64,000 bases of DNA from Candidatus Buchananbacteria bacterium (GTDB lineage: Bacteria; Patescibacteriota; Patescibacteriia; Buchananbacterales; UBA6539). Below, one piece after another: positions 3,149-47,134 of the stretch (positions within the stretch are counted from its first letter, which is position 1; each line of letters begins with the position of its first letter). Both the position numbers and the translations under genes were made by a program. The stretch is taken from NCBI GenBank assembly GCA_041664165.1, contig JBAYLH010000001.1, positions 73,469 through 137,468 on the forward strand, written 5' to 3'. The notes under the pieces are model-generated. The model made no database searches and was not told the DNA's origin. It saw only the letters and a list, made by a program, of their open reading frames with translations.

Positions 3149-3287
3149 AAAAAATTTAAATTCTAATTTCTAATTTCAAAATTCGAAATAAATTACAAAC
3201 TATAAATTCTAATTTTCCAGATATTTTAAAATTTATAATTTAATAAATTGGAATTTGTTTAGAATTTCGAGTTTCGGGCTTCGAATT

Positions 3288-9804: not shown

Positions 9805-9830
9805 AGGGGTTAGGGACTAGGGATTAGGGG

Positions 9831-10625
9831 TTAGTGGCGCCAAGCCCTGCGGTGACCGCGCATCCTTTCCGCCGCGCCGGCTTCTTCGTCGCGGATTACT
9901 TTGCCGGTTAGATTCAAAAAGGCATCTTCCAAAGTTTGAGTGCTAGTTTTTTGCTTTAATTCAGCCGGACTGCCGGCGGCAATGATTTTACCATGGTCAA
10001 TAATGGCGACCTGGCCGGCAGCGCGATCCGCTTCTTCCATGTAATGAGTCGTAAAAAACACCGTCATGCCTTCGTCTTTATTTAATTTTTTAATGTAATT
10101 CCAAATATGATTTCGCGTCTGCGGATCAAGTCCCAAAGTCGGCTCGTCTAAAAATAAAATTTTAGGGTGATGAATTAGGCCGCGGGCGATTTCTAACCTT
10201 CTTTTCATCCCGCCGGAAAACTTTTTAACTAGTTCATTTTTACGATCCCAAAGTTCGACGAATTTCAGCATCTCTTCAATCCGCTCGCGCCTGACTTTTT
10301 TTGGCACGCCATAAAGTACGCCGTGAAATTCCAAATTTTCCCAGGCCGTTAATTCATCGTCCAAACTTTGATCCTGAAACACAATGCCAAAAGAATGCCG
10401 AACCGCATCCTGAGCCGTTACCGGATCATAACCGTTAACTGAAATTTTGCCATCAGTCGGCGAAAGCAAAGTCGTCAGCATCTTGATCGTCGTGGTTTTG
10501 CCCGCGCCGTTTGGCCCCAAAAAAGCAAAAATACCCCCTTTTTCCACATTGAAGGAGATATTGTCCACGGCCGTAAAATTACCGAATTTTTTGGTTAAAT
10601 TTGCAACATCAATCATAGTTTGCAT
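9831..10625 (-). CDS. ABC transporter ATP-binding protein (DrrA-like)
   Basis: Walker A GPNGAGKTT, signature FSGGMKRRLEIARGL, and Walker B LFLDEPTLGLD. Confidence 0.9.
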   Translation of the reverse strand: MQTMIDVANLTKKFGNFTAVDNISFNVEKGGIFAFLGPNGAGKTTTIKMLTTLLSPTDGKISVNGYDPVTAQDAVRHSFGIVFQDQSLDDELTAWENLEFHGVLYGVPKKVRRERIEEMLKFVELWDRKNELVKKFSGGMKRRLEIARGLIHHPKILFLDEPTLGLDPQTRNHIWNYIKKLNKDEGMTVFFTTHYMEEADRAAGQVAIIDHGKIIAAGSPAELKQKTSTQTLEDAFLNLTGKVIRDEEAGAAERMRGHRRAWRH

Positions 10626-23187: not shown

Positions 23188-24513
23188 TTACAAATCTAAA
23201 TATCTTTTTAGTTCTCTAGGCGTTACCTCCGTTTTTTGCTCTTCAATTTCAATTTGTTTAGCGCTGATAAATCTATCTAGGGTATGTTGAGTAATAGCGC
23301 CCTTAACCACTTCATCTTTATTTAATTCACTAATCGCTTCTGGCAGTGAACCCGGCAAACTGGATATTTTTAGCTCTTGCTTTCTGTTATCATCTAAATG
23401 ATAAATATCTTCCTCGATGGCCGGCGATAACGGCATATCTTTTTCAATGGCATCGAGTCCCGCCGCCAAGATCGCGGCAAAGGCCAAATAAGGATTGCAC
23501 GACGGATCTGGGGATCGGAGTTCGACTCTGGTTGATTGCTCACGGCCCGGCGTAAACCGCGGAATTCGGATCAGTGCTGACCGATTCATTTGAGCCCAGC
23601 AGATATTGACCGGGGCTTCATAGCCAGGTATCAGTCTCTTAAAAGAATTAGTAGTCGGATTGGTCAAGGCAGTAAAACCTCGGCTATGATGCAGTAAACC
23701 AGCAATAAACTGATAAGCGATTTTTGACAGCTTATAGCCATTGTTGTCTTCATAAAACAAATTATTGCCTTTTAAATCAAACAGGCTTAAATGCACGTGC
23801 ATACCTGATCCGTTTATGCCACCAAATGGTTTTGGCATAAATGTCGCATTGATACCATAACTTTGGGCAATTGCTTTGATGGTAGTTTTTAGAGTTATGA
23901 TATTATCTGCCGTATTTAAGGCATCGGCATAACGAAAATCAATTTCATGCTGCCCTGCTGCAACTTCATGATGACCGGCCTCAATTTTTATATTTAATTC
24001 AGATGAAGCTTTGATTACATCCTCCCTGATTTTTGAGGCGACATCGAAAGGAGAAAAATCAAAATAGCCGCCATAATCATGGGGAACAGGTGCCATACTG
24101 CTATCTTTTTGCAAAAGAAAAAATTCCAGTTCTGCCCCAACGTTCAAAATCAATCCTTTATCTTCGGCTTTTTTCATCATCTGTTTTAAAATGTAACGCG
24201 GATCGCCGATGAATGGTTTTAAGTCTGGACCATAAACATCACAAATTATTCTAGCAGCTTTATTTTCTTTTAAACTCCAAGGCAAAGTGCAGTAAGTTTT
24301 TACATCTGGCATCAGTAGCTGATCACTTTCGGCAATTCTGGCAAACCCCTCAATCGAGGAACCGTCAAACCAGATGCCTTTTTCCAAAGCGCCGGACAAT
24401 TGTTCGGTTGGGATTACAACATCTTTGGGTATACCCAAGATGTCGGTAAACTGCAGATGAATGTACTTAACGTTATCTTTATTTACCTTTTCTAAAAGTG
24501 TTTCTTTGCTCAT
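23188..24513 (-). CDS. glnA: Glutamine synthetase type I (ATG at 24513 preferred over the track's upstream TTG at 24543)
   Basis: GS catalytic motifs (GINGSGMHVHLSLFD, NPYLAFAAILAAGLDA). The real start is judged to be MSKETLLEKV. Confidence 0.9.
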   Translation of the reverse strand: MSKETLLEKVNKDNVKYIHLQFTDILGIPKDVVIPTEQLSGALEKGIWFDGSSIEGFARIAESDQLLMPDVKTYCTLPWSLKENKAARIICDVYGPDLKPFIGDPRYILKQMMKKAEDKGLILNVGAELEFFLLQKDSSMAPVPHDYGGYFDFSPFDVASKIREDVIKASSELNIKIEAGHHEVAAGQHEIDFRYADALNTADNIITLKTTIKAIAQSYGINATFMPKPFGGINGSGMHVHLSLFDLKGNNLFYEDNNGYKLSKIAYQFIAGLLHHSRGFTALTNPTTNSFKRLIPGYEAPVNICWAQMNRSALIRIPRFTPGREQSTRVELRSPDPSCNPYLAFAAILAAGLDAIEKDMPLSPAIEEDIYHLDDNRKQELKISSLPGSLPEAISELNKDEVVKGAITQHTLDRFISAKQIEIEEQKTEVTPRELKRYLDL

Positions 24514-24544
24514 AGTTAATTTTTTTGTTAAGTTTAAAATCAAA

Positions 24545-24607
24545 CAAAAAAGGCGTCAAAAATTATTTTGGACGTCTTTGTCGAGTCTTTTTAGTACGCC
24601 TTTGTAC
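24545..24607 (-). promoter_or_regulatory. Candidate ANTAR-target dual hairpin plus terminator in the glnA leader
   Basis: Minus sense has GUAC-AAAGGC-GUAC and GAC-AAAGAC-GUC (hexaloops with A1 and G4) 11 nt apart. A GACGCC U7 tract follows, with GGCGU available upstream for a terminator stem. Confidence 0.45.
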
Positions 24608-24652
24608 TAATCATAGTGTAGCACAAACCAAAAAAAAGTCAACTGTGGATAT

Positions 24653-25360
24653 TTAAGCCATAACATCCTGGGCTAAAATAATGGCTTCGGCTACTTCTTT
24701 GAGCGATTTTCGTTTATCCATGCTCTTTTTAACCAAAAGCCGATGAGCCTCTTGCTCGGTTAAGCCGCCGGCTTTAATCAAAATTGCTTTAGCCTTATTG
24801 ATAATTTTTTGGGTTTCCAACGCTTCTTTCAAAACATTAGTTTCGGAAATCAGTCGAGACACTTCCAAAATTCCGCCAATTTGTTTGGCAATCGTTTCTA
24901 AAAAATTAATTTCTTTTCTTGGATATCTTTTTGATTTTTTATGCTGAACATTAATTACGCCGATGACATGATTACGAAAAATTATCGGCACCGATAAAAA
25001 CCCTTCAAATTTGTCTTCCGGCAAACTGGAAAAAAGCTTAAAGCGCTTATCTTCATAAGCTTTTTTGGAAATGGCGACTGACTTTTTCGTTTCCGCTACC
25101 CAGCCGGTAATGCCTTCGCCGACTTTCATTTTAACTCGGGAGAGATTAGAGTGATGGGGATTTTGGGACGCTTTCAAAATTACCTCTTCGCCGGAAATCA
25201 AATAAATGAAGCAGGAATCAGCTTTGGTAATTTTGCCGATAATTTTAGCGATGTTATCCAAAATTTCCCGCAAATCAAAGTTGTTGCTGGCGGTTTCAAT
25301 AATTTCCTGCAAAATCAATAAATTATTTTTGACGTCTAAATTTTGATTTTTGGTGGCCAT
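24653..25360 (-). CDS. GAF-ANTAR RNA-binding antitermination regulator
   Basis: An N-terminal GAF-like domain, and a C-terminal ANTAR helix region LTEQEAHRLLVKKSMDKRKSLKEVAEAII. Confidence 0.75.
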   Translation of the reverse strand: MATKNQNLDVKNNLLILQEIIETASNNFDLREILDNIAKIIGKITKADSCFIYLISGEEVILKASQNPHHSNLSRVKMKVGEGITGWVAETKKSVAISKKAYEDKRFKLFSSLPEDKFEGFLSVPIIFRNHVIGVINVQHKKSKRYPRKEINFLETIAKQIGGILEVSRLISETNVLKEALETQKIINKAKAILIKAGGLTEQEAHRLLVKKSMDKRKSLKEVAEAIILAQDVMA

Positions 25361-29847: not shown

Positions 29848-31443
29848 TTACAAACCCTTGTCTGTATTGATGTCGGGTGAACTGTTTTTAATTGAATCTT
29901 TGCTATACTCGGTAACGGCCGTAATTTGGCTGCCGGTTTTATAGTTAACAAAGAAAGCATCGGAAATATCATCTACTAAGGTAGTCGCCCAGCTGGCGCC
30001 GTAAAGAGCAGCGGCGATGTCAGCGGTGGTAACCCATCTCAAAGTGCCATCACCGGCAACGGCGTAAACTTTCGGATCCGTGTTGATTTTAACTAATTTT
30101 ACACCGGGCCGATAAGTCGCGTTGCCACCAATCAGGTACTTGGCTAAATCAGCGGCGCTAATGGTTTTAACGGTGGAAAAATCGCTATACCAAGTCTTGT
30201 AAGTTTTTTCATTCGGAAAAACATAGCGTTTGCCATCTTGGCCAAGATAATAGACTGCCTTGCAGGGATCATTAACACCAGCGTTGGCAGCACAAGCTAA
30301 CTTGACTAAATCGCCGCCGGCCGCAATTTTTTCGCCAATGACCGCAAACTTAGTGAAATGAGCGGTTGTAGCCGTGATTTTATTGCCAGCGGAGTCAATA
30401 GTACCGCCCAAACTGAGCCATTTCTTGGTCGCTTCGTCCCAATAGTTGACCGCTAAAGTCGATTCATTAATCCCTTTAATATTTTCGTCGGAGTAGGTAA
30501 AAGTCAAAGTCAACAACTTGTCAAAGGTGGTTATTGCCTGTCCGCCGACCGTGGCCGAAAAGTCATAAACTTGATTGCCAACCACTCCTTTGGCGCTTTC
30601 CGGAGCAGTATAACTGGCAGTTGGCGTAATCGTTATTTCCCCGCTGCCGCTGAAAGCGCCGCTTGGGATTGTAATCGCCGCTTTATTATCCGTTAAAGAA
30701 ACTAAACCCCCTTCGGTGCCGGTAATGGCTTTGGTAATCTTAGCTGCCGGCGCGATTAATTCGATGGTGTCGCTAACCGCTGCCGATTCACCGCCGCCGG
30801 TTGACCGAAACTTAACATAGACAGTCTTAACGCCCAAGCCGGAGACTAAAGTCCAGCTGGCTGAAGTTGCATAATTTTGCCAGCTGCCGGCATCGGAAAA
30901 ATCAGCTTTATTGGCAATTAACATAGTAGCGGCGTTTGTCGCTGATAAAGTAAGCGTGATACCGGTACTTTCCGTCTGAATGTTGCCGCTATCAATTGCT
31001 ACCGCAGCATTGGTAGGCGTAACTACTACCGGTGCCGCACCGCCGCCACCTCCACCGCCGCCACCGCTGCCCGGAGCACTACACTTGTCGCCGCTAATAG
31101 TTAAAGTAACATCTTGACTTGATCCCGAAGTTATACTGATTGACGAAGCCGTGCCGGAACAGCCATCTTGGGCAATTTCCGGTGAAACTTTCATTCGCCA
31201 GCCGTCGGCTGCTTGAAAGGTAATATTTGAATCACTGGCCAAACTAATAGTCAAAGTGGAATCTGCATTAATAATAATTGACTCGGCTAAACTGTCGTTG
31301 GTAATCGTTAAATTTTTACCATTAGGCAGTAAAAGATTAGTTTCGGCATTAAACGTCAGTGTCGCCGCGGCAGCCAAACCTGGGATGCCGACAGCAAGAG
31401 AAAATATTACCAACCCGACTCCTATAAAAAATATTTTCCGCAT
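29848..31443 (-). CDS. Secreted cell-surface protein with Gly-rich linker
   Basis: Signal peptide, a GSGGGGGGGGGAAP linker, and Thr/Ser-rich beta-rich segments. Confidence 0.6.
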   Translation of the reverse strand: MRKIFFIGVGLVIFSLAVGIPGLAAAATLTFNAETNLLLPNGKNLTITNDSLAESIIINADSTLTISLASDSNITFQAADGWRMKVSPEIAQDGCSGTASSISITSGSSQDVTLTISGDKCSAPGSGGGGGGGGGAAPVVVTPTNAAVAIDSGNIQTESTGITLTLSATNAATMLIANKADFSDAGSWQNYATSASWTLVSGLGVKTVYVKFRSTGGGESAAVSDTIELIAPAAKITKAITGTEGGLVSLTDNKAAITIPSGAFSGSGEITITPTASYTAPESAKGVVGNQVYDFSATVGGQAITTFDKLLTLTFTYSDENIKGINESTLAVNYWDEATKKWLSLGGTIDSAGNKITATTAHFTKFAVIGEKIAAGGDLVKLACAANAGVNDPCKAVYYLGQDGKRYVFPNEKTYKTWYSDFSTVKTISAADLAKYLIGGNATYRPGVKLVKINTDPKVYAVAGDGTLRWVTTADIAAALYGASWATTLVDDISDAFFVNYKTGSQITAVTEYSKDSIKNSSPDINTDKGL

Positions 31444-31479
31444 AACATTATAGTTTAAGGGTAATTAATTTTCTCTTTT

Positions 31480-32028
31480 TTAATTACAGCGACCAGCCGA
31501 GCAAACTAAGCTAGGGGTGGCAACATCAATATAACAATTATAATAAGCACCGTTGCTGGCAGCTAATTCTAAACAGCCATTAGTAACCGGAGCGGCGCTG
31601 CCGTCGTTAATATCGCCGATACTGACTGTTGAAGTCGAGCTAGTCCGATCCCGAGAAAATATTCCCGGCGTAGTTGTCGGAGCAGAACTCGTTGATAAAT
31701 CAAAAATTGTCCCGCCGGCCTTTATATAGCTGCCGACTGTCAGACTGCCTCCGGCGCTAACGGCACCCTGAGTGTAAAGCCCGCCGGTCGATGAAGCGTT
31801 GCCGATAACCGTCAAATCATTACTGGCATACAAAGAAGTCGTGGTCGCGCTGCCGCCAACTGATAAATTGCCGCTGGTAAGAGTGATGTCGCCCGAACCG
31901 ACAGTAATGCTACTGCCGATAGTCGTTGCCGCGTAAACAACCGTCATAACAAAAAGCGATGCGATCAGCACCACCATTACACTTTTAAGAAACGATGACC
32001 ATTTTGAAAATTGTTTCTTAATCTCCAT
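31480..32028 (-). CDS. Secreted Ser/Thr/Gly-rich protein with Cys-rich C-terminus
   Basis: N-terminal signal anchor, and a GCLELAASNGAYYNCYIDVATPSLVCSAGRCN tail. Confidence 0.5.
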   Translation of the reverse strand: MEIKKQFSKWSSFLKSVMVVLIASLFVMTVVYAATTIGSSITVGSGDITLTSGNLSVGGSATTTSLYASNDLTVIGNASSTGGLYTQGAVSAGGSLTVGSYIKAGGTIFDLSTSSAPTTTPGIFSRDRTSSTSTVSIGDINDGSAAPVTNGCLELAASNGAYYNCYIDVATPSLVCSAGRCN

Positions 32029-32178: not shown

Positions 32179-32718
32179 TTAACTATTTTTGACGGTTAAA
32201 GCCTTTAATTGCCTAAAATTTGCCAAAAACTTAATTCCTTCATAAGCCCCAACAAAGATGCCGGTATAGAATAAATCCCCCAACAAAGTGGCTCGGAAAA
32301 AAGGAATCGCCGCGATGAAACAGTCAACTAAGCCAAGCAAATCTTTGGTGTACCAGGAGGCAAACTGCCAAACTGCAAAATTAGTGGCGATAAAAAACAA
32401 AACCGAGGCAAAAATACTGGCTGCCATCACCACTTCAACATTCTTATGTTTTTTGATTAAGCTGGCAACTAAGCCCGTAATAACGTAGCTGCCATAAACT
32501 ACCAGCATCAAAGGCAGCGAATAAAAACCGATGAACAGATCGCCTAAAGCCATGGCGGCAATCGGCAAAAAAACGGCATAGCTCCGACCCAAATAAAAAC
32601 CGGCAAAAATAGCAATGGCGGCAATCGGCGCAAAGTTGCCAAGATGAGGTAAAATTCGACAAGCCACCCCCAGGGCGATCAAAATGATTGAAATAATGAT
32701 TTTTGTTGTTTTGTCCAT
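32179..32718 (-). CDS. Small polytopic membrane protein (ECF S-component-like / BtuM-like candidate cobalamin transporter)
   Basis: 179 aa with 5-6 TM helices. It is the last gene of an operon with DUF4430-like and alpha/alpha-toroid proteins behind a candidate B12 riboswitch. Confidence 0.5.
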   Translation of the reverse strand: MDKTTKIIISIILIALGVACRILPHLGNFAPIAAIAIFAGFYLGRSYAVFLPIAAMALGDLFIGFYSLPLMLVVYGSYVITGLVASLIKKHKNVEVVMAASIFASVLFFIATNFAVWQFASWYTKDLLGLVDCFIAAIPFFRATLLGDLFYTGIFVGAYEGIKFLANFRQLKALTVKNS

Positions 32719-32724
32719 ACAATT

Positions 32725-33186
32725 TTAATGTTTTATCAAATTAAATTGGTTTGAAACATATTTCCACTCGACAATATCTCCCGCTTTTAATTGATAGTTG
32801 CTGGCACCGATCTCCGCATAAACATTATTGACCCAATAATGCCAAAACCGATTAGTCTTATTATTGTTAGCAATTTTATTGATTGATTCGACTAAAACCC
32901 CGAGTTCGCCGCCATAGTCCTTGTAGCTAAACTCCAGCTTATTTTCGGCGGTAATTTTTTTTAGCAACTCAAAAACCGAACTATTCTCGGCTAAAGCGAT
33001 GCTATTGAAAGTCTGGACTTCACCGTTACCGAAATCAAGCATTAAATTGACCTTAATTTCTTGGTTTGCCTGGTTTTTTGGCTGTTTATTGATCCAGCCA
33101 TCGGCCGGAGCCAAAACCTGCTGGCCAAAATAAAAACCGGCAAAAAAGATAGCCAGGGCTAATATAATTTTAGCAATCAGTTTCAT
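32725..33186 (-). CDS. DUF4430-like (transcobalamin C-terminal beta-domain-like) secreted protein
   Basis: Signal peptide. The C-terminal WHYWVNNVYAEIGASNYQLKAGDIVEWKY matches the DUF4430 W.Y.VN......G......L..GD.I.W.Y pattern. Confidence 0.6.
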   Translation of the reverse strand: MKLIAKIILALAIFFAGFYFGQQVLAPADGWINKQPKNQANQEIKVNLMLDFGNGEVQTFNSIALAENSSVFELLKKITAENKLEFSYKDYGGELGVLVESINKIANNNKTNRFWHYWVNNVYAEIGASNYQLKAGDIVEWKYVSNQFNLIKH

Positions 33187-33187
33187 C

Positions 33188-33694
33188 TTAGTTAGCTTTA
33201 ATTTTATTGCGACTTATTAATAATTTTACTGCAAAAAAGGCAAATAAGCAAACAATTATCCCGGCTAAAATTTCCGCCCAAAGCGGCAAACCCCAGACAT
33301 AAAGCGTCAGCGGGATCTTTACGCCCGTAGCCGCTGCTAATCCCCCGCTCGCCAAAGGCCGGGCCACGACCGAAAGATTAGTGCTAAATATCCCCGGCCG
33401 TTTCGGGTTAACGATAACTTTGATCAGCTGGCTGCCGTCGGGATCAAGCCGAAAATCAGCCGGACTGATTTTAATTTCCGAATTCAAGCCGTCGGGATAA
33501 ACCTGATACAGCGCCGGTTCGGAACTGACGTTAAAAATCAAAACTTCCGTTTCCGTTGAAAAATTTACCAGGGCTTTGAAACTAAGCTCATTCGGCTTGA
33601 CCCCGATGCCGATGGCTTGCGCCGACTGGCTGACCATCAAACTAAAAAACAGAGCTAGCGCTAATACTACAAATTTTTGGCAGAACCAAATCAT
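33188..33694 (-). CDS. Secreted protein with C-terminal TM anchor
   Basis: Signal peptide plus a C-terminal hydrophobic helix and basic tail. Confidence 0.5.
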   Translation of the reverse strand: MIWFCQKFVVLALALFFSLMVSQSAQAIGIGVKPNELSFKALVNFSTETEVLIFNVSSEPALYQVYPDGLNSEIKISPADFRLDPDGSQLIKVIVNPKRPGIFSTNLSVVARPLASGGLAAATGVKIPLTLYVWGLPLWAEILAGIIVCLFAFFAVKLLISRNKIKAN

Positions 33695-33707
33695 AGCCTA
33701 AAGTAAA

Positions 33708-35570
33708 CTATTGAACCTGGGCCCAAAAAATTACTTCCCCGGTTTTGATGCCAAAACCCAGGTAATTGCCCGGCACTGCCAAAACGACATCCTGGTTTTT
33801 ACTTTCCTGGCTGGCCAAGTTTAAAAAGTAGCCGGACCATAGACTGCTGCCAATTGAAACATTTCGAGTAAAAACCGGGTCGCCGGTAACTGACGAAGTA
33901 ATTCTTAAGTTAACCGTACCCAAATTATTTAAAGTGATGGTTTGGCTGGCACTTTTTCCCGGCTGGACTTTGCCGAAATCAAGCTGGCTGGGAGTAACTT
34001 CAAAAATGATCGCTTCCCCGCCGATCCGGCCGCGGCCGCCCTGGTCAACTTCGACTTGCAAACCGACATTTTGCGAAACGCCGCTGCCAACCGAAATTAT
34101 TGCCTGATTGCTCCGGATGTAATTTTCCTTTTCCGCCGCTAAAGTGTAATAACCCGCCGGCAGCGCCATCACCACCTGGCCGGAAACGTCAGTTTGGTAT
34201 TCTTTATCGCCGCCGAAAACTATCGCGCCGGAAATCGGCTGCCAGTCCGACTGGCTGAAATATTTTACCGTTACGGTAATGCTTTCTCCCGGGTCAGTCT
34301 GATTTTTGCTGACAGTCAGGCTCAAGGGCTTATCGTAATCCGGATAAGCCGGAGCGTTGGTGTCGACATCATAATAAATTAAAACTTCGTCATTAGCCTG
34401 CAGATTATATTGCTCCAAACCGGAATCCGAAGGCTTATTATTTATCAAATACATCCAATAAGCCGGCGAACTGCCCGCCACGCCATTGATTGAATCAAGA
34501 AAAAAAGTGCCATAAGTCCGGTTGCCGGCAAAATTGTAATGACAAGAGACTGAACCGGCGACTAATAAATCATAAGCCGTCAAACCATTTAAAAACTTAT
34601 CGCAAATTGCCCCAGTCTGGCCTTCGATCCGAAAATGATATTGACCGGTTGGCTCTTGGCTGTCGCCGCTAGCACCAGCGTTAAAATGAGCTAAAGGCAA
34701 AGTCCGGCCCGATAAGGCCAAAACCGCATCCTGCGTCGCCAGCAAATTAGCGCCGGCATTAGTTTCGGTTCGGCCAAAAGAACCGTCGGCATTTTGCCGG
34801 GCGGAAATATAGCTAATCGGATTATTGTTTCCTTTGACCCATTGCTCCGGATTTTGACCGGCTTTGCGGATCGCCCAAACCACCCAGCTGGTTGAATTGG
34901 CATCGGATGAATTGTCAGCCGCCCAGCCAAAACCGCCGTCAGCATTTTGGGCTGAAGTTAAATAGCTTAAAGCATTAGTAACAGTCGAATTGCTGGCATT
35001 AACGCCGGCTTCCAGCAAAGCGATAGTAACGATAGCGGTGCTGTTGGTATCGCTGTCAATGCCGATGTTATAGCCCCAGCCGCCGTCAGGATTTTGTTTT
35101 GACAGCAAATAATTTTTGGCGCCGACAATTTCCGTACCCGTTAAACTCTGGCCGGCGGAAGATAAAGCTAAAATGCCAAAACTATCGTCCATCAGCATTT
35201 GACTGTCGCCAATTTGGCTATTTTGGTAAAAGCCTTTCAAGGCGGCAACGTAATCAATATTGCCGAAATCAGCCGGATTTTGACCCAGCGCCGAAACGGC
35301 CAAAATGGTTTTGGCGTAGTCTAACGGCGTATTGTCAGTTGATTTGAGGTAATCCGAAGCGATGTCGGAAGCGCCGGCCGCCACCAAAGCCATGGTCACC
35401 CAAGGCGCCTGGCTTGATTGTTTTAAATAAGTGATTGAATCTTGGCTGATGTCAGCCGAGACAATGGCCGGCTGAAAAACCGATAAAACCACGGCCGCAG
35501 CCAATAAAATAGTAATGATTTTGTTTTTCATATAAACAAAAAATCTCCCGTTTCGAGAGAGTTTGGTCAT
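33708..35570 (-). CDS. Secreted alpha/alpha-toroid (prenyltransferase/terpene-cyclase-like repeat) protein with C-terminal Ig-like domains
   Basis: Repeated segments of the type QNPDGGWGY, QNADGGFGW and QNADGSFG are typical of alpha/alpha-toroid repeats. An N-terminal signal peptide is present. Confidence 0.6.
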   Translation of the reverse strand: MTKLSRNGRFFVYMKNKIITILLAAAVVLSVFQPAIVSADISQDSITYLKQSSQAPWVTMALVAAGASDIASDYLKSTDNTPLDYAKTILAVSALGQNPADFGNIDYVAALKGFYQNSQIGDSQMLMDDSFGILALSSAGQSLTGTEIVGAKNYLLSKQNPDGGWGYNIGIDSDTNSTAIVTIALLEAGVNASNSTVTNALSYLTSAQNADGGFGWAADNSSDANSTSWVVWAIRKAGQNPEQWVKGNNNPISYISARQNADGSFGRTETNAGANLLATQDAVLALSGRTLPLAHFNAGASGDSQEPTGQYHFRIEGQTGAICDKFLNGLTAYDLLVAGSVSCHYNFAGNRTYGTFFLDSINGVAGSSPAYWMYLINNKPSDSGLEQYNLQANDEVLIYYDVDTNAPAYPDYDKPLSLTVSKNQTDPGESITVTVKYFSQSDWQPISGAIVFGGDKEYQTDVSGQVVMALPAGYYTLAAEKENYIRSNQAIISVGSGVSQNVGLQVEVDQGGRGRIGGEAIIFEVTPSQLDFGKVQPGKSASQTITLNNLGTVNLRITSSVTGDPVFTRNVSIGSSLWSGYFLNLASQESKNQDVVLAVPGNYLGFGIKTGEVIFWAQVQ

Positions 35571-35574
35571 AAAG

Positions 35575-35760
35575 TCTGCCTAAATTAGCGACTTTCACCT
35601 GCTCTTAGCCTCGAAGAGTTTAGTGAATTAATCAGTTTTGATTTTCGCGACCTGGCTTAGTCTTGGCACTAGCCTTGACTTCACAGTTGCGGGTCAGCGG
35701 AGGATTGGTTAGAAACAAGTAGTTTAGTAACATGTAACATGTTTCTTGTCACTTGTCTCT
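35575..35760 (-). promoter_or_regulatory. Candidate cobalamin riboswitch with terminator expression platform
   Basis: Minus sense ...CCAAUCCUCCGCUGACCCGCAACUGUGAAGUCAAGG... matches the conserved cobalamin-aptamer core (compare E. coli btuB GAAUCUGGAGCUGACGCGCAGCGGUAAGG). An AGCCAGG B12-box-like element lies downstream. A UCUCUCG-aaa-CGGGAGA hairpin with U6 sits immediately before the ATG. Confidence 0.45.
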
Positions 35761-35914
35761 AAATTTACCTCACTTCGGAAAATCAAAACTCTTTGTTAAA
35801 GGTAGCTTAAGTTTAGACGGCAAAAATTTTAATGTCAAATCTGACTGTGGATAAATAGAAAAACTCTAAATCCTAATACCTACCTTTGGTATGAAGGATT
35901 TCGTGCTTAGAATT

Positions 35915-36436
35915 TTAGTCCTCTATCCCTTTCCTGGCTAATAAACCGGCTTGATACGGGTGTTTAATTTCTTTCATTTCCGTCACGTAGTCGGCCAGCT
36001 TGATTAATTCTTTTGGTGCCCGGCGGCCGGTCAAAACTAATTCAACGCCAGCCGGCTTACTTTTCATCAGTTGAACTATTTCTTTAACCGAAATTAATTT
36101 AAAAAATAACGCCAAAAAAATTTCATCCAAAATCACCAAGTCAAACTTACCGGATTTGAATATCTTTTTTGCCCAATTCAGCGCTCTTTTGGCTAAAATT
36201 TTATCTTGAGCCGTGCCTTTTTGGTAAATATAAGTCTTTTGGCCAAAGCGCTTAATTGTTACTTCCGGTAATCGTTTTAAGCTATCCAGCTCACTATACT
36301 GCTGGGCTTTGAGAAACTGAACCAGATAAACCTGATAACCGGCGCCAATCGCCCGCAAAGCCAAGCCTAAAGCGGCCGTGGTTTTGCCCTTGCCGTCGCC
36401 GGTATAAATATGGATTTTGCCTAATTGAGATTTCAT
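35915..36436 (-). CDS. cobO: Cob(I)alamin adenosyltransferase (CobA/CobO/BtuR family)
   Basis: IHIYTGDGKGKTTAALGLALRAIGAGYQVYLVQFLK P-loop region. The 173-aa size fits. Confidence 0.85.
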   Translation of the reverse strand: MKSQLGKIHIYTGDGKGKTTAALGLALRAIGAGYQVYLVQFLKAQQYSELDSLKRLPEVTIKRFGQKTYIYQKGTAQDKILAKRALNWAKKIFKSGKFDLVILDEIFLALFFKLISVKEIVQLMKSKPAGVELVLTGRRAPKELIKLADYVTEMKEIKHPYQAGLLARKGIED

Positions 36437-37326: not shown

Positions 37327-37481
37327 CTAATATCAGTTCTTTGATAATAAAATGGCTAATTTTACCGACTTAAGGCTTAATTCCTTGAATAGTTCAGGAA
37401 ACTAAGCCCTTAGCCGGTGAAATTGGTTTCATCGGAAATACTGAGGGTTTTTCTCTAAAAATCACGGCAGGAGAGGAGGAA

Positions 37482-37505
37482 ATGGTAATAACGCCGCCTA
37501 TTTGA
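37482..37505 (+). CDS. 7-codon uORF MVITPPI in the cassette leader
   Basis: ATGGTAATAACGCCGCCTATTTGA is preceded by GGAGAGGAGGAA 5 nt upstream. A Pro-Pro-Ile-stop ending makes it a potential stalling peptide. Confidence 0.35.
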   Translation: MVITPPI

Positions 37506-37566
37506 AGGTTTCAAAGAGAGAAAGACTGCGAGAGAGAGTGAGAGATTTAGAGAGAGGAGTACGGCT

Positions 37567-38439
37567 ATGTCGTACCAAAAGAAGCTCGAGAGAGCAGAAG
37601 CGATAGTCGCAGAACACAACGAAAGTGCCGGCGACGAAGGCAAAGTGGATTGGGAAAGTTTCCTGGCCAAGCTGAAAGGGACGGGCGGCACAACCGAGGC
37701 AACCTTAAACAGTTGCACCTGGGAAGACTTACAGGAATGCGGCCTGCCCAAGATGCTGGCGCGAGCGGTTGCCAAGGTTTTCCGCACTGAAGAAGGCGAG
37801 GGTAAGAAAACGCTGATCACGGTAAATAAGGCTCAAGCCATGCCCGTCGCGGAATTGGTCGAGCACTATGACCCGCGTGAGGCGGACAATCCCGTAGGCA
37901 AGCGGCTGGCCGAAATAACGAAAGACCAGCCCTGCATCGTCTTCAACGCGGACGGCACGGTCAACGTCGAAGCATCAACACAGCTCGTGAATGAGCTGCG
38001 GGACAATCTCCCAGCGAGGGAAACCTTCGTCGTTGATGGACGGCCCCAAAAGGTCTTTCGCATCGGCGAACGGCCGGATCAGGTGGCGGATGAAAACCCG
38101 CTTTGGCCGGGTCGAATGTTGCGACCGAACGGTGACTGCGACCAAACCAACCGGAGTTGGACTGGCGTTCCCGACGAAGTGCGTGCCTTGATCTACTTGG
38201 CGCGCACCGAGACGAACGAACTCAATTCCGTGGGTGTGATGGAAGCCAATGCGGTTTTGGATCTGGCAACCGGCGACAACGCCGCGGATAAGATTCGCCA
38301 GCACTTTCCTAAAGCGTCGGTCAAGTACGACGAGCTGAAAGCGATTGGCAACCTGCCATCGCTCAAGCTTGCCCGGACCGGTAGCAGCGGTAGTAGTGCA
38401 GCAAATCAGCCGTTTACCCACAGGAACCGGATATTCTAA
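37567..38439 (+). CDS. Hypothetical protein A of the GC-rich cassette (290 aa)
   Basis: GAGAGGAG SD upstream. The composition is acidic and GC-rich. No family recognised. Confidence 0.6.
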   Translation: MSYQKKLERAEAIVAEHNESAGDEGKVDWESFLAKLKGTGGTTEATLNSCTWEDLQECGLPKMLARAVAKVFRTEEGEGKKTLITVNKAQAMPVAELVEHYDPREADNPVGKRLAEITKDQPCIVFNADGTVNVEASTQLVNELRDNLPARETFVVDGRPQKVFRIGERPDQVADENPLWPGRMLRPNGDCDQTNRSWTGVPDEVRALIYLARTETNELNSVGVMEANAVLDLATGDNAADKIRQHFPKASVKYDELKAIGNLPSLKLARTGSSGSSAANQPFTHRNRIF

Positions 38440-38515
38440 GGGACGGCCACAACCGGCAGGGGGGGGACGAGTTTATTCTTCGTCCTCTCCCCTGCCAACT
38501 GAAAGGAGTTCTGCG

Positions 38516-39484
38516 ATGAACACAAACGACCCATTTACGGGGTTTAGTGGCAACCCCATAATGAGAATCAATGACTTGGCCTGTACGCTGAATATGCCGC
38601 GCCGACTACAACAACGATTCAGCGCGGATCAGCGGGAAGTTGCTCAAAGTTTGCCGGAACGCAATCGGCGAGCGGCTTTCGTAGTCGACGAATACCCGGC
38701 TTGTCCCGACAACTGGATGCGCGGTTCAGCCAAAGAAGCCAGCTACTTCGTGCCGGTTTTAGCCGATCACGGTCTGTGGCTAGATTTCAACGACAACAAA
38801 GATCACAGCCACCACGTGGCGGCAGTGATCTCGATTCAGGGAGTCAACGCCATCACCGGCCAGCCGACCAGCGACATGTACCTTGAGCAGTACCGAGACA
38901 ATTGCCCGGTACACCAGATTCCGTTCGGACACGAACGCTTCTGTGAGAAGTGCGGATACAAATGGGAAGCCCAGAACTATCTGGCCGGCAATGCTCAATC
39001 CAATGGCTACTTCTGGTTGGATGGCTTTCGGGCCAAGGACGGAGAGACCAGGCAGTTTTACTTCACCGAAGAGACACTCCGTGGAGTTGCGGCCCAAATC
39101 CTCGGCAGTGAGAGAGTTTTTGCCATCGGCATCGCCTTTTTCCTCAGCAAGGAACCAAAGCCGCAGCCAGTGGTAGCTGACGCCTACGGTTATTTAGGCG
39201 GCGGCGCGATGCGAGGCTTCCTTTCGTCCTTCAATGAAAGAACGTTGGGTATACCTGATTTCCAGGAACGGACTTTGGAAATTGCTGCCGGAGCCAAAAT
39301 CAATCAACGGATCCACCCTGATCCAGAGAGCCTGGATTTTTGGCAGCCTGAACCCGCCGGAGTAATCTACGTCAACTACGTGGATGCCGAAACCGGCTGG
39401 CAAATCGTTACTGCCGGTAAACGCGACCTCGAGGCTCAAGGCGAAGGGTTCATGAGTACTCTCAAGGTTGGCGTGCAAACCTAG
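38516..39484 (+). CDS. Hypothetical protein B of the GC-rich cassette (322 aa) with a CxxH...CxxC putative metal-binding motif
   Basis: AAAGGAG SD 7 nt before the ATG at 38516. The track's longer frame from 38345 lacks an RBS. The motif is CPVHQIPFGHERFCEKCG. Confidence 0.6.
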   Translation: MNTNDPFTGFSGNPIMRINDLACTLNMPRRLQQRFSADQREVAQSLPERNRRAAFVVDEYPACPDNWMRGSAKEASYFVPVLADHGLWLDFNDNKDHSHHVAAVISIQGVNAITGQPTSDMYLEQYRDNCPVHQIPFGHERFCEKCGYKWEAQNYLAGNAQSNGYFWLDGFRAKDGETRQFYFTEETLRGVAAQILGSERVFAIGIAFFLSKEPKPQPVVADAYGYLGGGAMRGFLSSFNERTLGIPDFQERTLEIAAGAKINQRIHPDPESLDFWQPEPAGVIYVNYVDAETGWQIVTAGKRDLEAQGEGFMSTLKVGVQT

Positions 39485-39620: not shown

Positions 39621-41960
39621 TTAGCCGCATTTAGAAAAACCGCAAGACCGGCACTTGAGACAGCCTTCCGCAATCTCTAGGATATTGCCACATTCCGGGC
39701 ATTCCGGCGCTTCGCCGTAATCAGCAATGGTGCGCTTAATATTCAAGCCGTTGCCATTTTTGGCGGCTGGCACCGCTTTATTCATTGAATCTTTGGAAAC
39801 ATGGCTGCCGTTATGAAATTCCAAGCCTAAGGCCGGCTGGTTTTGCGTGATATGGCGTTCTAAAATCTGGGCAATCGCGTCAGGCAGCGATAAAATCATG
39901 CCGCCTTCGCTCCACGACGGCATCGGCCCGCGAATGCCTTTGATTTGTTTGATAACCTCTTCCGGCGGAATTCCGGCCCGCAAAGCCAAAGAAATTAAGC
40001 GGCAGACCGCTTCCGATTTGGCCGAGAAAAATCCGCCCGCTTTACCGATGGTGGCAAAAACCTCAAACGGCCGACCGGTTTCATCGTCATTAATCGTAAC
40101 GTATAAATCGCCGTAAGAAGTATTGATCTTATAAGTCGTGCCTCGCATCGCCATTGGCCGTTCCCGCTTATAAAAAGGCTTGGCCGCGGCTTCTTCTTTG
40201 GGCTTGGCCGCGGTGCCGGCGGTTAAAACTTGAACGTCGCGGCTGCCGTCGCGATAAATCGTTATCCCCTTGCAGCCGGTTTCATAAGCCAAAAGGTAAG
40301 CCTTGGCAATATCTTCCACCGTCGCGCTGTGCGGAAAATTAATGGTTTTCGAAACCGCGTTATCGATATATTTTTGAAAAATACTCTGCATCCGGATATG
40401 CCATTCCGGGCTGATATCATGAGCCGTCACAAAAATTCTTTTGACTTCGTCGGGCACTTCGGAAAATTCATTGATCGAACCGGCTTTAGAAATTTTTTCC
40501 ATCAATTCTTTGGAATAAAAACCCCTTTCTTTGGCAATAGCTTCAAAATAAGGATTAACTTCCATTAATTCAACCCAGTCGTCACCTTTGCGGCCGATAT
40601 GAGACTTGCGGATATAGGCTAGGGCAAAAAGCGGCTCGATGCCGGAAGAACAAGAAGCAATAATGCTTAAAGTGCCGGTTGGCGCAATGGTCGTCCGGGT
40701 CGCGTTTCTAATTCCCTGGCTTTCCGGCGTATCGTAAATACTGCCTTCAAAATTGGGAAAAACGCCTTTTTCTTTGGCTAAAGCAATGGAAGTAACGTCA
40801 GCGGTGTCTTTGATAAATTTCATCACTTTTTCCGCCAAATTGATCGCTTCGGAAGAATTGTAAGCAATACCCAAATCAACCAGCAGGTCGGCCCAGCCCA
40901 TCACGCCCAGCCCGATTTTGCGGTTGCTGCGAGTCATGTCGGCAATCTCTTTGATCGGGTACTGATTCATGTCGATGACATCATCGAGGAACCGAACAGC
41001 GGTTTTAACCACTTCGCCGAGCCTCTCCCAGTCAATTTTTCCTTCGTTAATGAATTTGGCCAGATTAATCGAGCCTAAATTGCAGGATTCATACGGTAAC
41101 AGCGGCTGTTCACCGCAAGGATTGGTGCTTTCAATGGCGCCGACATGAGGCGTTGGATTAAGCTTGTTAATCGAATCAATAAAAACCACGCCGGGATCGC
41201 CATTTTTCCAGGCATGGTTGACGATTTTATCCCAAACTTCCTTAGCTTTCAATTTTTTCGCCACCTGGCCGTCATGCGGATTAATCAATTCATATTCATC
41301 GTCTTTATCCAAAGCCTGCATGAATTTATCAGTGATGGCCACGGACAAATTGAAATTATTAAGCTTATCGCTTTGCTCTTTGGCGGAAATAAAAGCTAAA
41401 ATATCGGGATGATCAACCCGTAAAATTCCCATGTTGGCCCCGCGGCGAGTTCCGCCCTGCTTAATCGTTTCCGTGGCGGCGTCAAAAACCGTCATGAAAG
41501 AAATCGGACCGGAAGCTAAGCCGCTGGTTGACCGCACCGGGTCTTTCGCCGGCCGGAGCCGGGAAAAAGAAAAACCCGTGCCGCCGCCGGATTTATGAAT
41601 CAAAGCCGTATTTTTAATCGCGCCGAAAATTCCTTCCATTGAGTCGTCAACCGGCAAAACAAAGCAGGCGGAAAGCTGGCCGAGTTTGGTGCCGGCGCCG
41701 GAAAACGTCGGGCTGTTGGGCAAAAACTCCAAATTTACCATGATTTCCAAAAAAGCCCGCTCTAATTCCTCTTTTTTCTCTTTAGAAACGCTAGTGTATT
41801 TATCCTCAGCTTTAATAATGTAACCGGAAACCCGCTTGAACATCTCCATCGGCTTTTCCACCACCTTGCCTTCGTCATCTTTCAAAAGATAACGGCTTTC
41901 CAGCACTTTTAAAGCATTTTTAGTTAATTTTAATTTTGGTTCACCAATGCCTAAAATCAT
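39621..41960 (-). CDS. nrdJ: Adenosylcobalamin-dependent ribonucleoside-diphosphate reductase (class II, NrdJ)
   Basis: 779 aa with RNR class II core motifs and a C-terminal CPECGN...[13 protein letters not shown] zinc-ribbon tail. Confidence 0.88.
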
Positions 41961-45398: not shown

Positions 45399-46373
45399 TT
45401 AAGGCGTTAATCTAAAACTTTTTACCATAATCTGAAAAGTCGTAAAGAAATTTGTCTCCGTAAAGCTGCCGGTATTATAAGTCAGGATGTAAACTCGGCT
45501 ATTATCGCCGTCTTTCATCAGATAATAACTCAAATTATCGGGGCTGCGCAAGCCTGAAGCATCATTAACCCTGATGTTAGTAACAGTAGCCGGATCAATT
45601 TCCGGAAATTGCTTTTTATACCAATCAATTGAGGCGAGATTTTCTGAATTAGAAATGACTAAAACTTCAATGAACTCCCCGGTAGCCGACACAAATAAAA
45701 CTTCGCTTTTTTGAGGGTCTTGCTCCCGAACCGTCCAGTTTACCGGATAAACAATTGAGTAAAACTGGTGGCTGTAAGCCGAAAATAAATTTGAGGCGGC
45801 TAAGCTGCCGGCAATTTTAGTCGGATCGTAGCCATTCAAAAGTTCCGAACCGTCGGCATAACCGTCGCCGTCAGTATCCGCGACGGCCGAATTGGTACCA
45901 TATAAGCTTTCTTCAGCGGCGGTTAAACCGTCGTTGTCGCTATCCAAAGCGGTCGGCAGCGGCTGAGGCCGGGAATAATTGGTATTAAGATTGGCGTTAC
46001 TGTTCAAATTGGCAGTAGTGCTGGGGGTTTCGTTAGTATTAGCATTGGCTGCCTCATTGGTATTCAGGTTGGCGTTACTGTTTAAATTTTCGTTAAGGGG
46101 CGGATTATTGGTGTTGCTATTGGCGTTTTGATTTTCTGAGTTGGCATTAACCATCGGCTGGAGCCGGTTTTTCTTCAAATTTTCATTTAGATAAAAAGCC
46201 GCGACGGCCAAACCGCCAATGACTAAAATGCCGATAATGATAATGATGATTAAGCCGGAGTTTTTCTTTTTCGGCGCCACATAAAACCGTTCCGGCATGA
46301 CGTGAATCTGTTTGATTAATTCAGGATCGGCGGTAAAATTTTTATTTAATTTTTGTTTTTTTTCTTTAAACAT
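45399..46373 (-). CDS. Membrane-anchored Asn-rich protein with thrombospondin type-3-like Ca-binding repeats
   Basis: N-terminal TM, an N/S-rich low-complexity region, and DSDNDGLTAAEE...DTDGDGYADGSE repeats. Confidence 0.55.
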   Translation of the reverse strand: MFKEKKQKLNKNFTADPELIKQIHVMPERFYVAPKKKNSGLIIIIIIGILVIGGLAVAAFYLNENLKKNRLQPMVNANSENQNANSNTNNPPLNENLNSNANLNTNEAANANTNETPSTTANLNSNANLNTNYSRPQPLPTALDSDNDGLTAAEESLYGTNSAVADTDGDGYADGSELLNGYDPTKIAGSLAASNLFSAYSHQFYSIVYPVNWTVREQDPQKSEVLFVSATGEFIEVLVISNSENLASIDWYKKQFPEIDPATVTNIRVNDASGLRSPDNLSYYLMKDGDNSRVYILTYNTGSFTETNFFTTFQIMVKSFRLTP

Positions 46374-46420
46374 AAAAACCGGTTGCTTTAGTCAATTGCG
46401 CCTAATTAGTTTAGCACCAA

Positions 46421-47134
46421 TTACGGAACTTTCAAAAATTTACCCGGACCTTTGGGATCATAGCCGTTCCTCACTTCATCGCCGTCTTTAAAGCCATCGC
46501 CGTCAGTGTCGGGATTATTCGGGTCAGTTTCAAAAACTTTGACTTCATCCCGGTCGGTTAAGCCGTCTTTATCCGTATCAACTTCATTGGGGTTGGTGCC
46601 ATACATTCTTTCTTCTTCGTCGGTCAGACCGTCATAATCAGAATCCACGGCCGCAACTGGCTGATTGATATCGGTTCCGGAATTGCCACTAGCTGGCTGG
46701 TTAGTATTAACTGGATTGCTATTTCCCGCCGGCTGATTTTGATTGCCCGCGGTTTGGCCGGACGGCGTTGCCGCTTTCGGCTGAGTCATTAATTTATAGC
46801 CATAAAACCCGGCCGCGCTAACCGCGCCGCCAATCAGCAAAACCAGCAAAACTAAAACAATAACTTTTTTATACTGCTTGAAAAACGGCTCTTTACTAAC
46901 AGCTTTGGCGGCCGGTTTAATCGCCGGCGGGACTGGAATTTGCGCGCCTAAAACCGGCGCCGCTTTTGGCTCGGCCGGACCCCGGAAAGCCGGTTCGATT
47001 TTTTCCAAATCAGCTAAAATATCTTCGGGTTCGCTTGGCTTTAACGGCACTGGATCGTTAATCGGCGAAACCGGACTGCCCGTTGGCAAATTTTGCGGCG
47101 GTAATCCCGCGTTAGCTGGTTTTTGATCAAACAT
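46421..47134 (-). CDS. Membrane-anchored protein with thrombospondin type-3-like repeats (paralog of 45399..46373)
   Basis: DSDYDGLTDEEE, DTDKDGLTDRDE and DTDGDGFKDGDE repeats. Confidence 0.55.
   Translation of the reverse strand: MFDQKPANAGLPPQNLPTGSPVSPINDPVPLKPSEPEDILADLEKIEPAFRGPAEPKAAPVLGAQIPVPPAIKPAAKAVSKEPFFKQYKKVIVLVLLVLLIGGAVSAAGFYGYKLMTQPKAATPSGQTAGNQNQPAGNSNPVNTNQPASGNSGTDINQPVAAVDSDYDGLTDEEERMYGTNPNEVDTDKDGLTDRDEVKVFETDPNNPDTDGDGFKDGDEVRNGYDPKGPGKFLKVP

Follow-up and report, generated by a model that had tools for sequence, protein, structure and literature searches.

A riboswitch-controlled operon with a transcobalamin-like surface protein in Candidatus Buchananbacteria, proposed to capture and import corrinoids

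The genomes of Patescibacteria are tiny, and these bacteria presumably live at the expense of other cells. How, then, might such a bacterium obtain the cobalamin (vitamin B12) on which its DNA-precursor synthesis depends? This question is raised by a locus of a Candidatus Buchananbacteria bacterium (contig JBAYLH010000001.1, positions 73,469 to 137,468), a stretch of 64,000 nucleotides that we analysed as a whole and call the window. On its minus strand, four densely spaced genes (gaps of 13, 1 and 6 nt according to the open reading frame (ORF) listing and family searches) lie behind a promoter, a cobalamin riboswitch and a terminator. The first gene encodes a large secreted protein with an alpha/alpha toroid and a transcobalamin-type beta domain, the second an immunoglobulin-like (Ig-like) protein with a transmembrane helix, the third a stand-alone SLBB/DUF4430 protein and the fourth a DUF6580 membrane protein. 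Taken together, the comparisons described below suggest that this is probably a B12-repressed operon of Patescibacteria for the capture and import of corrinoids. A first-pass annotation, made from the sequence alone, had proposed a cobalamin-regulated operon encoding a transcobalamin-like binder for the extracytoplasmic space along with a DUF4430 protein and a small polytopic membrane component, and this proposal stands. Everything that it described is present where it was placed, with four corrections; one of them is the gene count, which rises from three to four, as the Ig-like/transmembrane gene had been overlooked.

The leader and its cobalamin aptamer

Ahead of the first gene, the cobalamin core GCUGACCCGCAACUGUGA and the B12-box-like element AAGCCAGGUC are present in the right order. 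Both are invariant in an alignment with the leaders of six relatives and agree with the consensus of the covariance models (Rfam RF01482 and our lineage model R1). A scan of the window at the Rfam gathering scores returned no riboswitch but tRNA alone, and a permissive scan gave RF01482 (adenosylcobalamin, AdoCbl) 19.6 bits at 35592-35735 (E = 0.45, cut-off 50). An icaR 5' untranslated region match from the same permissive scan (E = 0.009, 29 bits against a cut-off of 88) was discarded as spurious.

R1 was built from seven orthologous leaders only, all of which pass the Rfam threshold; the window was left out and the model was trimmed to the P1-P1' core. Against the window it yields a full-model match with 79 bits and E = 1.7e-19 (Table 1), which is therefore far beyond chance. 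A second R1 match (37372-37411, 15.7 bits) covers only the P1 stem and was dismissed. The element recurs in the loci that we fetched for comparison, which are numbered with the letter L. Rfam clan CL00101 comprises RF00174, RF01482 and RF01689; among the relatives the RF01482 scores range from 54 to 65 bits (L082, 63.3; L088, 58.5; L081, 56.2; L086, 54.0), the L085 leader passes RF00174, and in L001, L002, L005, L092, L017, L018 and L020 the homologous gene is immediately preceded by a clan member above threshold. In ten Patescibacteria relatives this element is found at the corresponding position. Over all loci R1 makes 36 matches in 35 sources, all in the same orientation as the toroid gene; with three cases found by Rfam only added, a cobalamin riboswitch is present in at least 37 of the 90 loci that encode toroid relatives. 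Across the 36 aligned matches 89.4% of the cells are paired, compared with at most 47% in slid-partner controls, and 25 of 31 pairs show compensatory (two-sided) changes, although the alignment was fitted to the R1 model, which favours these pairing figures. Locus L092 contains two cobalamin riboswitches, one at 1920-2018 and one at 3286-3388; one precedes an unannotated gene for a 332-residue protein that has no Pfam match, the other the transcobalamin-like gene.

The conserved aptamer core that the first-pass annotation had recognized is thus borne out by the core blocks and by R1. Its proposed check by cmsearch gave no significant direct Rfam match, which is the first of the refuting conditions that it had named; the comparative evidence rescues the riboswitch. 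Judged by sequence and covariation, the leader comprises a complete cobalamin aptamer and, behind it, an intrinsic terminator.

The low Rfam score is due to an inserted hairpin, about 54 nt long, that interrupts loop L4. In the alignment of the leaders with those of six relatives, the window has every conserved block apart from an interruption of L4, where a gap-free insertion of about 57 nt, unique to the window, falls within the 7-nt loop; the corresponding region of the relatives reads GAGG-UGAGAAU-CCUC. In the R1 alignment 61 nt stand where the model has a 4-nt loop, and the short canonical L4 is absent. In the predicted fold the insert lengthens P4 by 13 bp and ends in a distal hairpin, with a symmetric 5+5-nt internal loop at its flank, and the P4 region has a folding energy of -25.4 kcal/mol (z = -5.6). 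The insert is identical in a second assembly record (L093). A repeated mobile element was considered and rejected, as the insert occurs once in the window.

The sigma-70-type promoter upstream of the aptamer matches the consensus at 10 of 12 positions in a consensus scan, and the layout TTGACA-N17-TAnAAT is kept in the leaders of L081, L082, L085, L086 and L001. At the other end of the leader, a terminator scan found TCTCTCGAAACGGGAGA and the T-run TTTTTTGTTT at 35560-35544; an equivalent terminator, CTCCCTCGAAAAGGGAGATTTTT, occupies the same spot in the same five loci. The 3' arm GGGAG of the terminator is also the Shine-Dalgarno sequence for the ATG at 35531. Since the terminator sits within the first 13 'codons' of the ORF as listed, translation almost certainly begins at this ATG (M14 of the listed ORF) and not at ATG 35570. 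The length of 620 residues given in the first-pass annotation is therefore to be corrected to 607, in agreement with the NCBI gene call (P0001, 607 residues) and with the homologues, which begin with MKxK.

A separate observation concerns the DNA just upstream. A perfect DnaA-box consensus, TTATCCACA, lies at 35846-35854 on the minus strand, 7 nt upstream of the -35 element of the riboswitch promoter. The layout of box, 5-10 nt and TTGACA recurs in four relatives (L081:5564, L082:5043, L085:2838 and L086:2572), and L001 carries TTATCCCCA at the equivalent place. The 64-kb window contains two perfect DnaA boxes, compared with 0.37 expected. DnaA could control the B12 import that feeds the class II ribonucleotide reductase.

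The four gene products and their genomic context

In the 620-residue numbering used here for its domains, the large protein comprises a signal peptide, a 12-helix alpha/alpha toroid (about 40-298), an SLBB/DUF4430 domain (about 309-401), a beta-sandwich (about 414-494) and an Ig-like domain (about 523-619). The signal peptide is predicted to be cleavable, between IVSA and the following D, so that the mature protein would begin at residue 28 of the 607-residue form. Pfam assigns the toroid to the prenyltransferase/squalene-cyclase type (PF13243, 1.5e-9; PF00432, 1.9e-9; also PF13249), so that the alpha/alpha-toroid surface protein of the first-pass annotation is upheld, and recognizes an internal DUF4430 domain at residues 351-401 (PF14478, 4e-11), beyond which a CarboxypepD_reg-like domain and a HYDIN/VesB-type Ig domain follow. 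Three QNxDG(G/S)(W/F)G repeats of the QW type are found in the toroid. The protein has just two cysteines, both invariant, extracytoplasmic and located in the SLBB/beta domain. In addition, it gave a below-cut-off match to the NCBIfam 'SCO2321 family membrane protein'.

An AlphaFold model computed from 33 homologues (mean predicted local distance difference test score, pLDDT, 84.8) places 12 helices in residues 43-286 and a beta-grasp-like fold in 310-401, with two further beta domains. When this model was compared with the PDB by Foldseek, hits 1-15 were intrinsic factor, transcobalamin and haptocorrin (E from 1.6e-10 to 1.4e-8, about 415-457 columns), and prenyltransferase beta subunits and cyclases took the next ranks at about 1e-7. 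The high root-mean-square deviation of the top hits is due to the unreliable inter-domain pose. The family profile reaches squalene-hopene cyclase through the toroid (5.3e-31) and the beta domain of human transcobalamin (5NO0) through the DUF4430 part (9.4e-6), and PF01122, the family of eukaryotic cobalamin-binding proteins, has no match in the large protein of the window. By these comparisons the toroid alone is inseparable from the cyclase/prenyltransferase superfamily, to which it is slightly closer. It is the combination of toroid and transcobalamin-type beta domain that makes the protein transcobalamin-like, and its predicted domains are those of a complete single-chain transcobalamin-like protein. 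As the toroid protein carries its own DUF4430/SLBB beta domain, the system is not split, contrary to what the first-pass annotation had supposed.

The gene that follows encodes a protein with a signal peptide, an Ig-like domain of the HYDIN/VesB/CFAP65 type and a C-terminal transmembrane helix, as judged by hydropathy and a weak Pfam match (3.4e-5). In every relative this gene comes after the transcobalamin-like gene, of which it is an obligate partner; in a Saccharibacteria genome (L002) the two form an operon of their own under riboswitch control. Its family counts 632 representatives at 50% clustering, four of which (P0249, P0251, P0274 and P0347; 311-329 residues) are natural fusions of the Ig-like/transmembrane part with DUF4430. 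These fusions tie the 168-residue product to the 153-residue product of the third gene. The idea that the Ig domains of the 168-residue and the large protein are paralogous is unsupported by sequence, because BLASTP detected no similarity when the 168-residue protein was compared with the Ig domain at the C-terminus of the large one.

The third protein consists of an N-terminal hydrophobic transmembrane/signal anchor and a DUF4430 domain (PF14478, 8.2e-16). The DUF4430 similarity that the first-pass annotation had claimed for it, and whose lack it had named among its refuting conditions, is thus found, and the domain is related to the internal DUF4430 of the large protein (BLASTP, E = 1e-5). 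Compared alone with the PDB, the 153-residue family profile reaches intrinsic factor only at E = 0.33. A profile pooled from the 153-residue family and the internal domains matches the beta domains of transcobalamin, intrinsic factor and haptocorrin at 2.5e-7 to 1.6e-3, and nothing else in the PDB below E = 0.4. On this evidence the protein can be assigned as a membrane-anchored paralogue, which would add a second transcobalamin-beta-like domain to the system.

The fourth protein, the small polytopic membrane component of the first-pass annotation, is as described there; it has 179 residues and belongs to DUF6580 (PF20221, 2.6e-43, 148.5 bits against a gathering cut-off of 27). Its AlphaFold2 model (pLDDT 93.6) shows the six-helix fold of the substrate-binding (S) components of energy-coupling factor (ECF) transporters; Foldseek retrieved FolT, ThiT, PanT and RibU with template-modelling scores of 0.57-0.69 and probabilities of 0.96-1.00. 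While phmmer of the single protein against the PDB found no matches, the family profile has a single one, chain 6FNP_A (CbrT of ECF-CbrT, E = 1.3e-4), and hhalign of DUF6580 with CbrT gave 70.5% probability and E = 3.9e-5 with 27% identity over 79 columns. The relationship with CbrT appears weak but specific. In the family alignment R21, P24-H25, N28, P31 and D60 (residues 21-31 and 60 of the window protein) are invariant, and N28 and P31 are common to CbrT; His25 in loop 1 is, speculatively, a candidate cobalt ligand. No BtuM chain came up in the PDB sequence or fold searches with DUF6580, and the family alignment contains no invariant cysteine of the kind that ligates cobalt in BtuM. S-component domains, DUF6580 among them, occur in one chain with distant toroid homologues. 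We regard DUF6580 as a candidate corrinoid translocator.

When the window proteins were compared by tblastn with all fetched loci, the full cassette was found in L001, L081-L087, L091 and L092, and L088 is interrupted by the contig end. CobA and NrdJ often lie upstream of the cassette in relatives. In the window itself the gene for CobA, a cob(I)alamin adenosyltransferase, lies upstream of the operon, beyond the unit controlled by the riboswitch; its synteny is kept in L001, L081-L086 and L092, and its function links it to the operon. A class II, adenosylcobalamin-dependent ribonucleotide reductase (NrdJ) is encoded further upstream, syntenic in relatives of the operon as well, and identified by TIGR02504 (NrdJ_Z, 755.6 bits against a cut-off of 400) and Pfam matches in addition to the match given in Table 1. 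Both enzymes had been named in the first-pass annotation and are confirmed by the family models; NrdJ is the likely consumer of the imported cofactor. Farther afield, a Chloroflexi locus (L018, 5454-11183) and a Streptomyces locus (L071, 5613-10700) have, in this order, a cobalamin riboswitch, a toroid-only protein, CbiQ and ATP-binding cassette (ABC) ATPases, in L018 followed by an ECF S-component; these gene sets are dedicated ECF transporters. Further R1 riboswitch matches lie upstream of toroid relatives in the Streptomyces loci L066, L068, L073, L075 and L076. The toroid protein of L018 has a sub-threshold PF01122 match (22.6 bits, 6.1e-5). From these observations, together with the SCO2321 match given above, the toroid family appears to belong broadly to the B12 regulon.

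Ligand, route of import and rival explanations

How might these parts work together? The secreted binder would sandwich a corrinoid between its toroid and its SLBB domain in the manner of transcobalamin, and the Ig-like/transmembrane protein would hold it at the cell surface. The ligand would be handed to the membrane-anchored SLBB protein and then to DUF6580, which would carry it across the membrane, either alone or together with an ECF ATPase module that is shared and encoded at another place. Inside the cell CobA would adenosylate the corrinoid, and the cofactor would serve the class II ribonucleotide reductase. At high intracellular cobalamin the aptamer would bind its ligand, the terminator would form and the Shine-Dalgarno sequence would be hidden, so that the operon would be switched off. 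Because DNA-precursor synthesis depends on a B12 enzyme, the operon is probably the entry route of an essential cofactor. No cob/cbi biosynthesis genes were found among the window ORFs of at least 120 residues that were scanned, that is, all but a giant ORF of 5613 residues. The scavenging role put forward in the first-pass annotation is the best reading of the operon.

Several points weigh against this proposal. The aptamer scores below the Rfam gathering threshold and carries an unusual L4 insertion. The inter-domain geometry of the AlphaFold2 model has low confidence (predicted template-modelling score, pTM, 0.51), and the 'sandwich' of toroid and SLBB domain is therefore assumed. Neither CbiQ/EcfT nor an ECF-type ATPase was found in the 64-kb window, where the sole ABC system is an ABC-2 exporter (9058-10625), and EcfT/EcfA are likewise missing within about 6 kb of the cassette in the Patescibacteria relatives. 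In the literature searched we found no corrinoid binding or transport tests on bacterial members of the class, a heme study in Lactobacillus sakei aside, and this sole experimental study of a similar operon favoured heme over B12 (bioRxiv 10.1101/864751).

The ligand could accordingly be another tetrapyrrole, namely heme, or incomplete corrinoids only, as for the L. sakei operon Lsa1836-1840, where the deletion mutant had less heme and heme was docked into the transcobalamin-like pair (bioRxiv 10.1101/864751); CbrT, too, takes cobinamide besides cobalamin (PMC5997447). However, a cobalamin riboswitch precedes the operon both here and in the related loci counted above, the operon adjoins CobA and NrdJ, and no cobU/S/T genes for cobinamide salvage were seen in the window. 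Because of the riboswitch and the CobA/NrdJ context we consider a ligand other than B12 very unlikely. A toroid of the cyclase superfamily might also belong to an envelope enzyme acting on terpenoid, prenyl or glycan substrates, its B12 control being indirect. Yet the large protein contains no D.DD and thus lacks the DxDD motif (the equivalent repeats read SDTNST and SDANST), it is secreted behind a cleavable signal peptide and fused to a transcobalamin-type SLBB domain, its only two cysteines are invariant and lie in the beta domain, and it shares its operon with an S-component, to which toroid relatives are even fused; we give this explanation hardly any credence. A different objection is that the riboswitch is decaying in this genome, in which case the L4 insertion would abolish sensing and leave the operon constitutively expressed or terminated. 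L4 makes a tertiary T-loop contact in crystal structures of cobalamin riboswitches; it has 7 nt in 10 of 10 relatives and is interrupted by the long hairpin in this lineage alone, where the Rfam score is correspondingly poor. Nevertheless, the remaining aptamer elements, P13 and the terminator are all intact, and the insert, identical across two assembly records, is a clean coaxial extension in which the flanking L4 bases make up a symmetric internal loop. Decay therefore seems unlikely to us.

If B12 is the ligand, its route across the membrane could still differ. DUF6580 might act as a solitary S-component-like transporter in the manner of BtuM or solitary BioY, without an ABC motor; the surface relay would feed the carrier, and tight trapping inside the cell through adenosylation by CobA would drive uptake. 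This would fit the missing ECF genes in the window and beside the cassette in every Patescibacteria relative, set against the dedicated ECF modules of the Chloroflexi and Streptomyces loci. There is a precedent in BtuM, which works without an ECF module (PMC6072759), and the invariant histidine of loop 1 (P24-H25) could ligate cobalt. On the other hand, Group II ECF modules are usually encoded far from their S-components (PMC5997447), so that absence from 64 kb says little; CbrT, the nearest solved relative, needs an ECF module, and DUF6580 has no similarity to BtuM. We see uptake by a solitary DUF6580 as possible, if on the unlikely side. A more explicit version of such a relay dispenses with the ECF ATPase altogether: the secreted binder would dock on a two-helix membrane complex of the Ig-like/transmembrane protein and the anchored SLBB protein, from which the corrinoid would pass to solitary DUF6580, with the histidine ligating cobalt. 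This scheme is tentative and we would not expect it to hold in full. Capture and import of a corrinoid under B12 repression, by whichever of these routes, is in our view the best-supported reading, and a probable one.

The wider locus and related systems

The coordinates of the operon and of the two associated B12 genes are collected in Table 1. An NCBI entry (P0001, 'Patescibacteria group bacterium') matches the large protein with 100% identity, and the same locus is contained in the independent assembly record GCA_041662345.1 (L093).

Table 1. Features of the operon and of the associated B12 genes (window coordinates).
Feature	Position	Strand	Details
Operon: promoter, cobalamin riboswitch, terminator and four genes	32179-35838	minus	
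Sigma-70-type promoter	35810-35838	minus	-35 TTGACA (35838-35833), 17-nt spacer, -10 TAAACT (ends at 35810)
Cobalamin riboswitch aptamer	P1-P1' 35633-35792, extends to about 35592	minus	lineage covariance model R1
Lineage-specific hairpin inserted in aptamer loop L4	35709-35762	minus	13-bp stem and distal hairpin, 5+5-nt internal loop
P13-type hairpin	downstream of P1', reaching about 35592	minus	CUCUUCGAGGCUAAGAG
Intrinsic terminator/expression platform	35534-35560	minus	stem TCTCTC/GGGAGA and T-run
Transcobalamin-like gene	33708-35531 (ORF as listed 33708-35570)	minus	607 residues (620 as listed)
Ig-like/transmembrane gene	33188-33694	minus	168 residues
Stand-alone SLBB/DUF4430 gene	32725-33186	minus	153 residues
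DUF6580 gene	32179-32718	minus	179 residues
CobA/BtuR cob(I)alamin adenosyltransferase	35915-36436	minus	PF02572 4.3e-62; TIGR00708 172.5 bits, cut-off 167.75
Class II (adenosylcobalamin-dependent) ribonucleotide reductase NrdJ	39621-41960	minus	NF006417 1180.8 bits, cut-off 961

Several neighbouring regions were noted in passing. Directly downstream of the operon, 29848-32028 on the minus strand encodes two secreted or membrane proteins with promoter-like sites of their own, one of 182 residues and no family match, the other of 531 residues and with a weak AIDA match; the syntenic loci lack this gene pair and continue with an MGMT-like gene and RF-1. Upstream of the operon there is also a gene for a 2-thiouracil desulfurase. 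The roughly 2 kb between it and NrdJ (37455-39484) contain two plus-strand ORFs of 290 and 379 residues without Pfam match, with a GC content of 0.55-0.58 compared with about 0.40-0.47 nearby. At the equivalent place L081 and L082, which are syntenic, have just small opposite-strand ORFs, and the region may be an acquired insert. The giant ORF (47155-63996, minus strand), which reaches the window end, probably encodes a giant surface protein; before it come two proteins that contain bacterial TSP3 repeats (45399-47134). Elsewhere, a gene for a GAF-ANTAR RNA-binding antiterminator adjoins glutamine synthetase (23188-25360, minus strand), and the two may form a nitrogen-control pair.

The concept of a bacterial transcobalamin-like system is not new, contrary to what the first-pass annotation implied: a computational prediction and the split version of L. 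sakei precede it. Burroughs, Balaji, Iyer and Aravind (2007, Biol Direct 2:4; PMC1796856) described a bacterial 'transcobalamin-like clade' with signal peptide, toroid, SLBB domain and extra Ig domains, often with a further gene for a paralogous extracellular SLBB protein in the operon and with adjacent CbiO/CbiQ genes, in hosts without B12 synthesis; by computational prediction only, they proposed scavenging of B12 or its precursors. Our operon is another case of this class, sharing the toroid-SLBB surface protein and the second SLBB gene. The hosts of 2007 were Firmicutes, planctomycetes and archaea with CbiO/CbiQ in the operon, whereas the present host belongs to the Patescibacteria and has no adjacent ATPase or T component; it has instead a DUF6580 S-component and a dedicated Ig-like/transmembrane partner, and riboswitch control is not mentioned in the earlier paper (PMC1796856). 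The likeness extends to mammalian transcobalamin, intrinsic factor and haptocorrin, in which a 12-helix toroid is likewise followed by an SLBB beta domain, and the beta domains are homologous in sequence (2.5e-7). The alpha domain differs in having no detectable sequence similarity to theirs (no PF01122), and the bacterial protein has two extra C-terminal beta domains. Its partner is a membrane transporter, while that of the mammalian carriers is an endocytic receptor.

With regard to the transporter, ECF-CbrT of Lactobacillus delbrueckii has been shown to transport cobalamin and cobinamide (Santos et al. 2018, eLife, PMC5997447; PDB 6FNP), and its genes form an nrdJ-cbrS-cbrT-pduO cluster. 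Both systems thus have nrdJ, an adenosyltransferase and an S-component in one neighbourhood, in addition to the S-component fold and the weak, specific similarity. They differ in that identity is confined to 27% over 79 columns between different Pfam families, that the adenosyltransferase is of the CobA type here and of the PduO type there, and that our operon includes extracellular binders. The L. sakei operon (bioRxiv 10.1101/864751) also joins an S-component to secreted transcobalamin alpha- and beta-like proteins, with a proposed hand-over of a tetrapyrrole. The L. sakei operon encodes alpha and beta as two proteins, includes the ECF A and T genes and is claimed to act on heme, whereas the operon described here joins alpha and beta in one chain, adds another beta and, by its regulation, suggests cobalamin as the substrate. 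BtuM, an S-component-like B12 transporter without ECF module (Rempel et al. 2018, Nat Commun; PMC6072759), provides a functional analogy; it shows no match beyond the general S-component fold, and its cysteine ligand is not conserved in DUF6580. A second functional analogy comes from outside the S-components, with the BtuG protein of Bacteroides. BtuG is an unrelated beta-propeller lipoprotein that feeds a TonB-dependent outer-membrane transporter. Like the binder proposed here, it captures B12 at the cell surface, with high affinity, and supplies a transporter (PMC6143338). In the literature searched we found no paper linking Patescibacteria to a transcobalamin-like B12 system.

What is specific to the present case is the host phylum, the DUF6580 protein as S-component, linked both to CbrT and to the regulation by B12, the obligate Ig-like/transmembrane partner with its SLBB fusions, the lack of an adjacent ECF module and the riboswitch with the L4 insertion. 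This riboswitch is an example of how real switches can escape standard Rfam scans. DUF6580, so far a 'putative transport protein', gains a concrete proposed function, and the four-gene cassette, with clear riboswitch evidence for the ligand, is a good candidate for a first biochemical test of the class. The system also bears on the proposal that the B12 carriers of animals came from bacteria. If the motor-less relay were true, it would constitute a new minimal route of B12 import in ultra-small bacteria and a bacterial model for the hand-over of a ligand between two transcobalamin domains.

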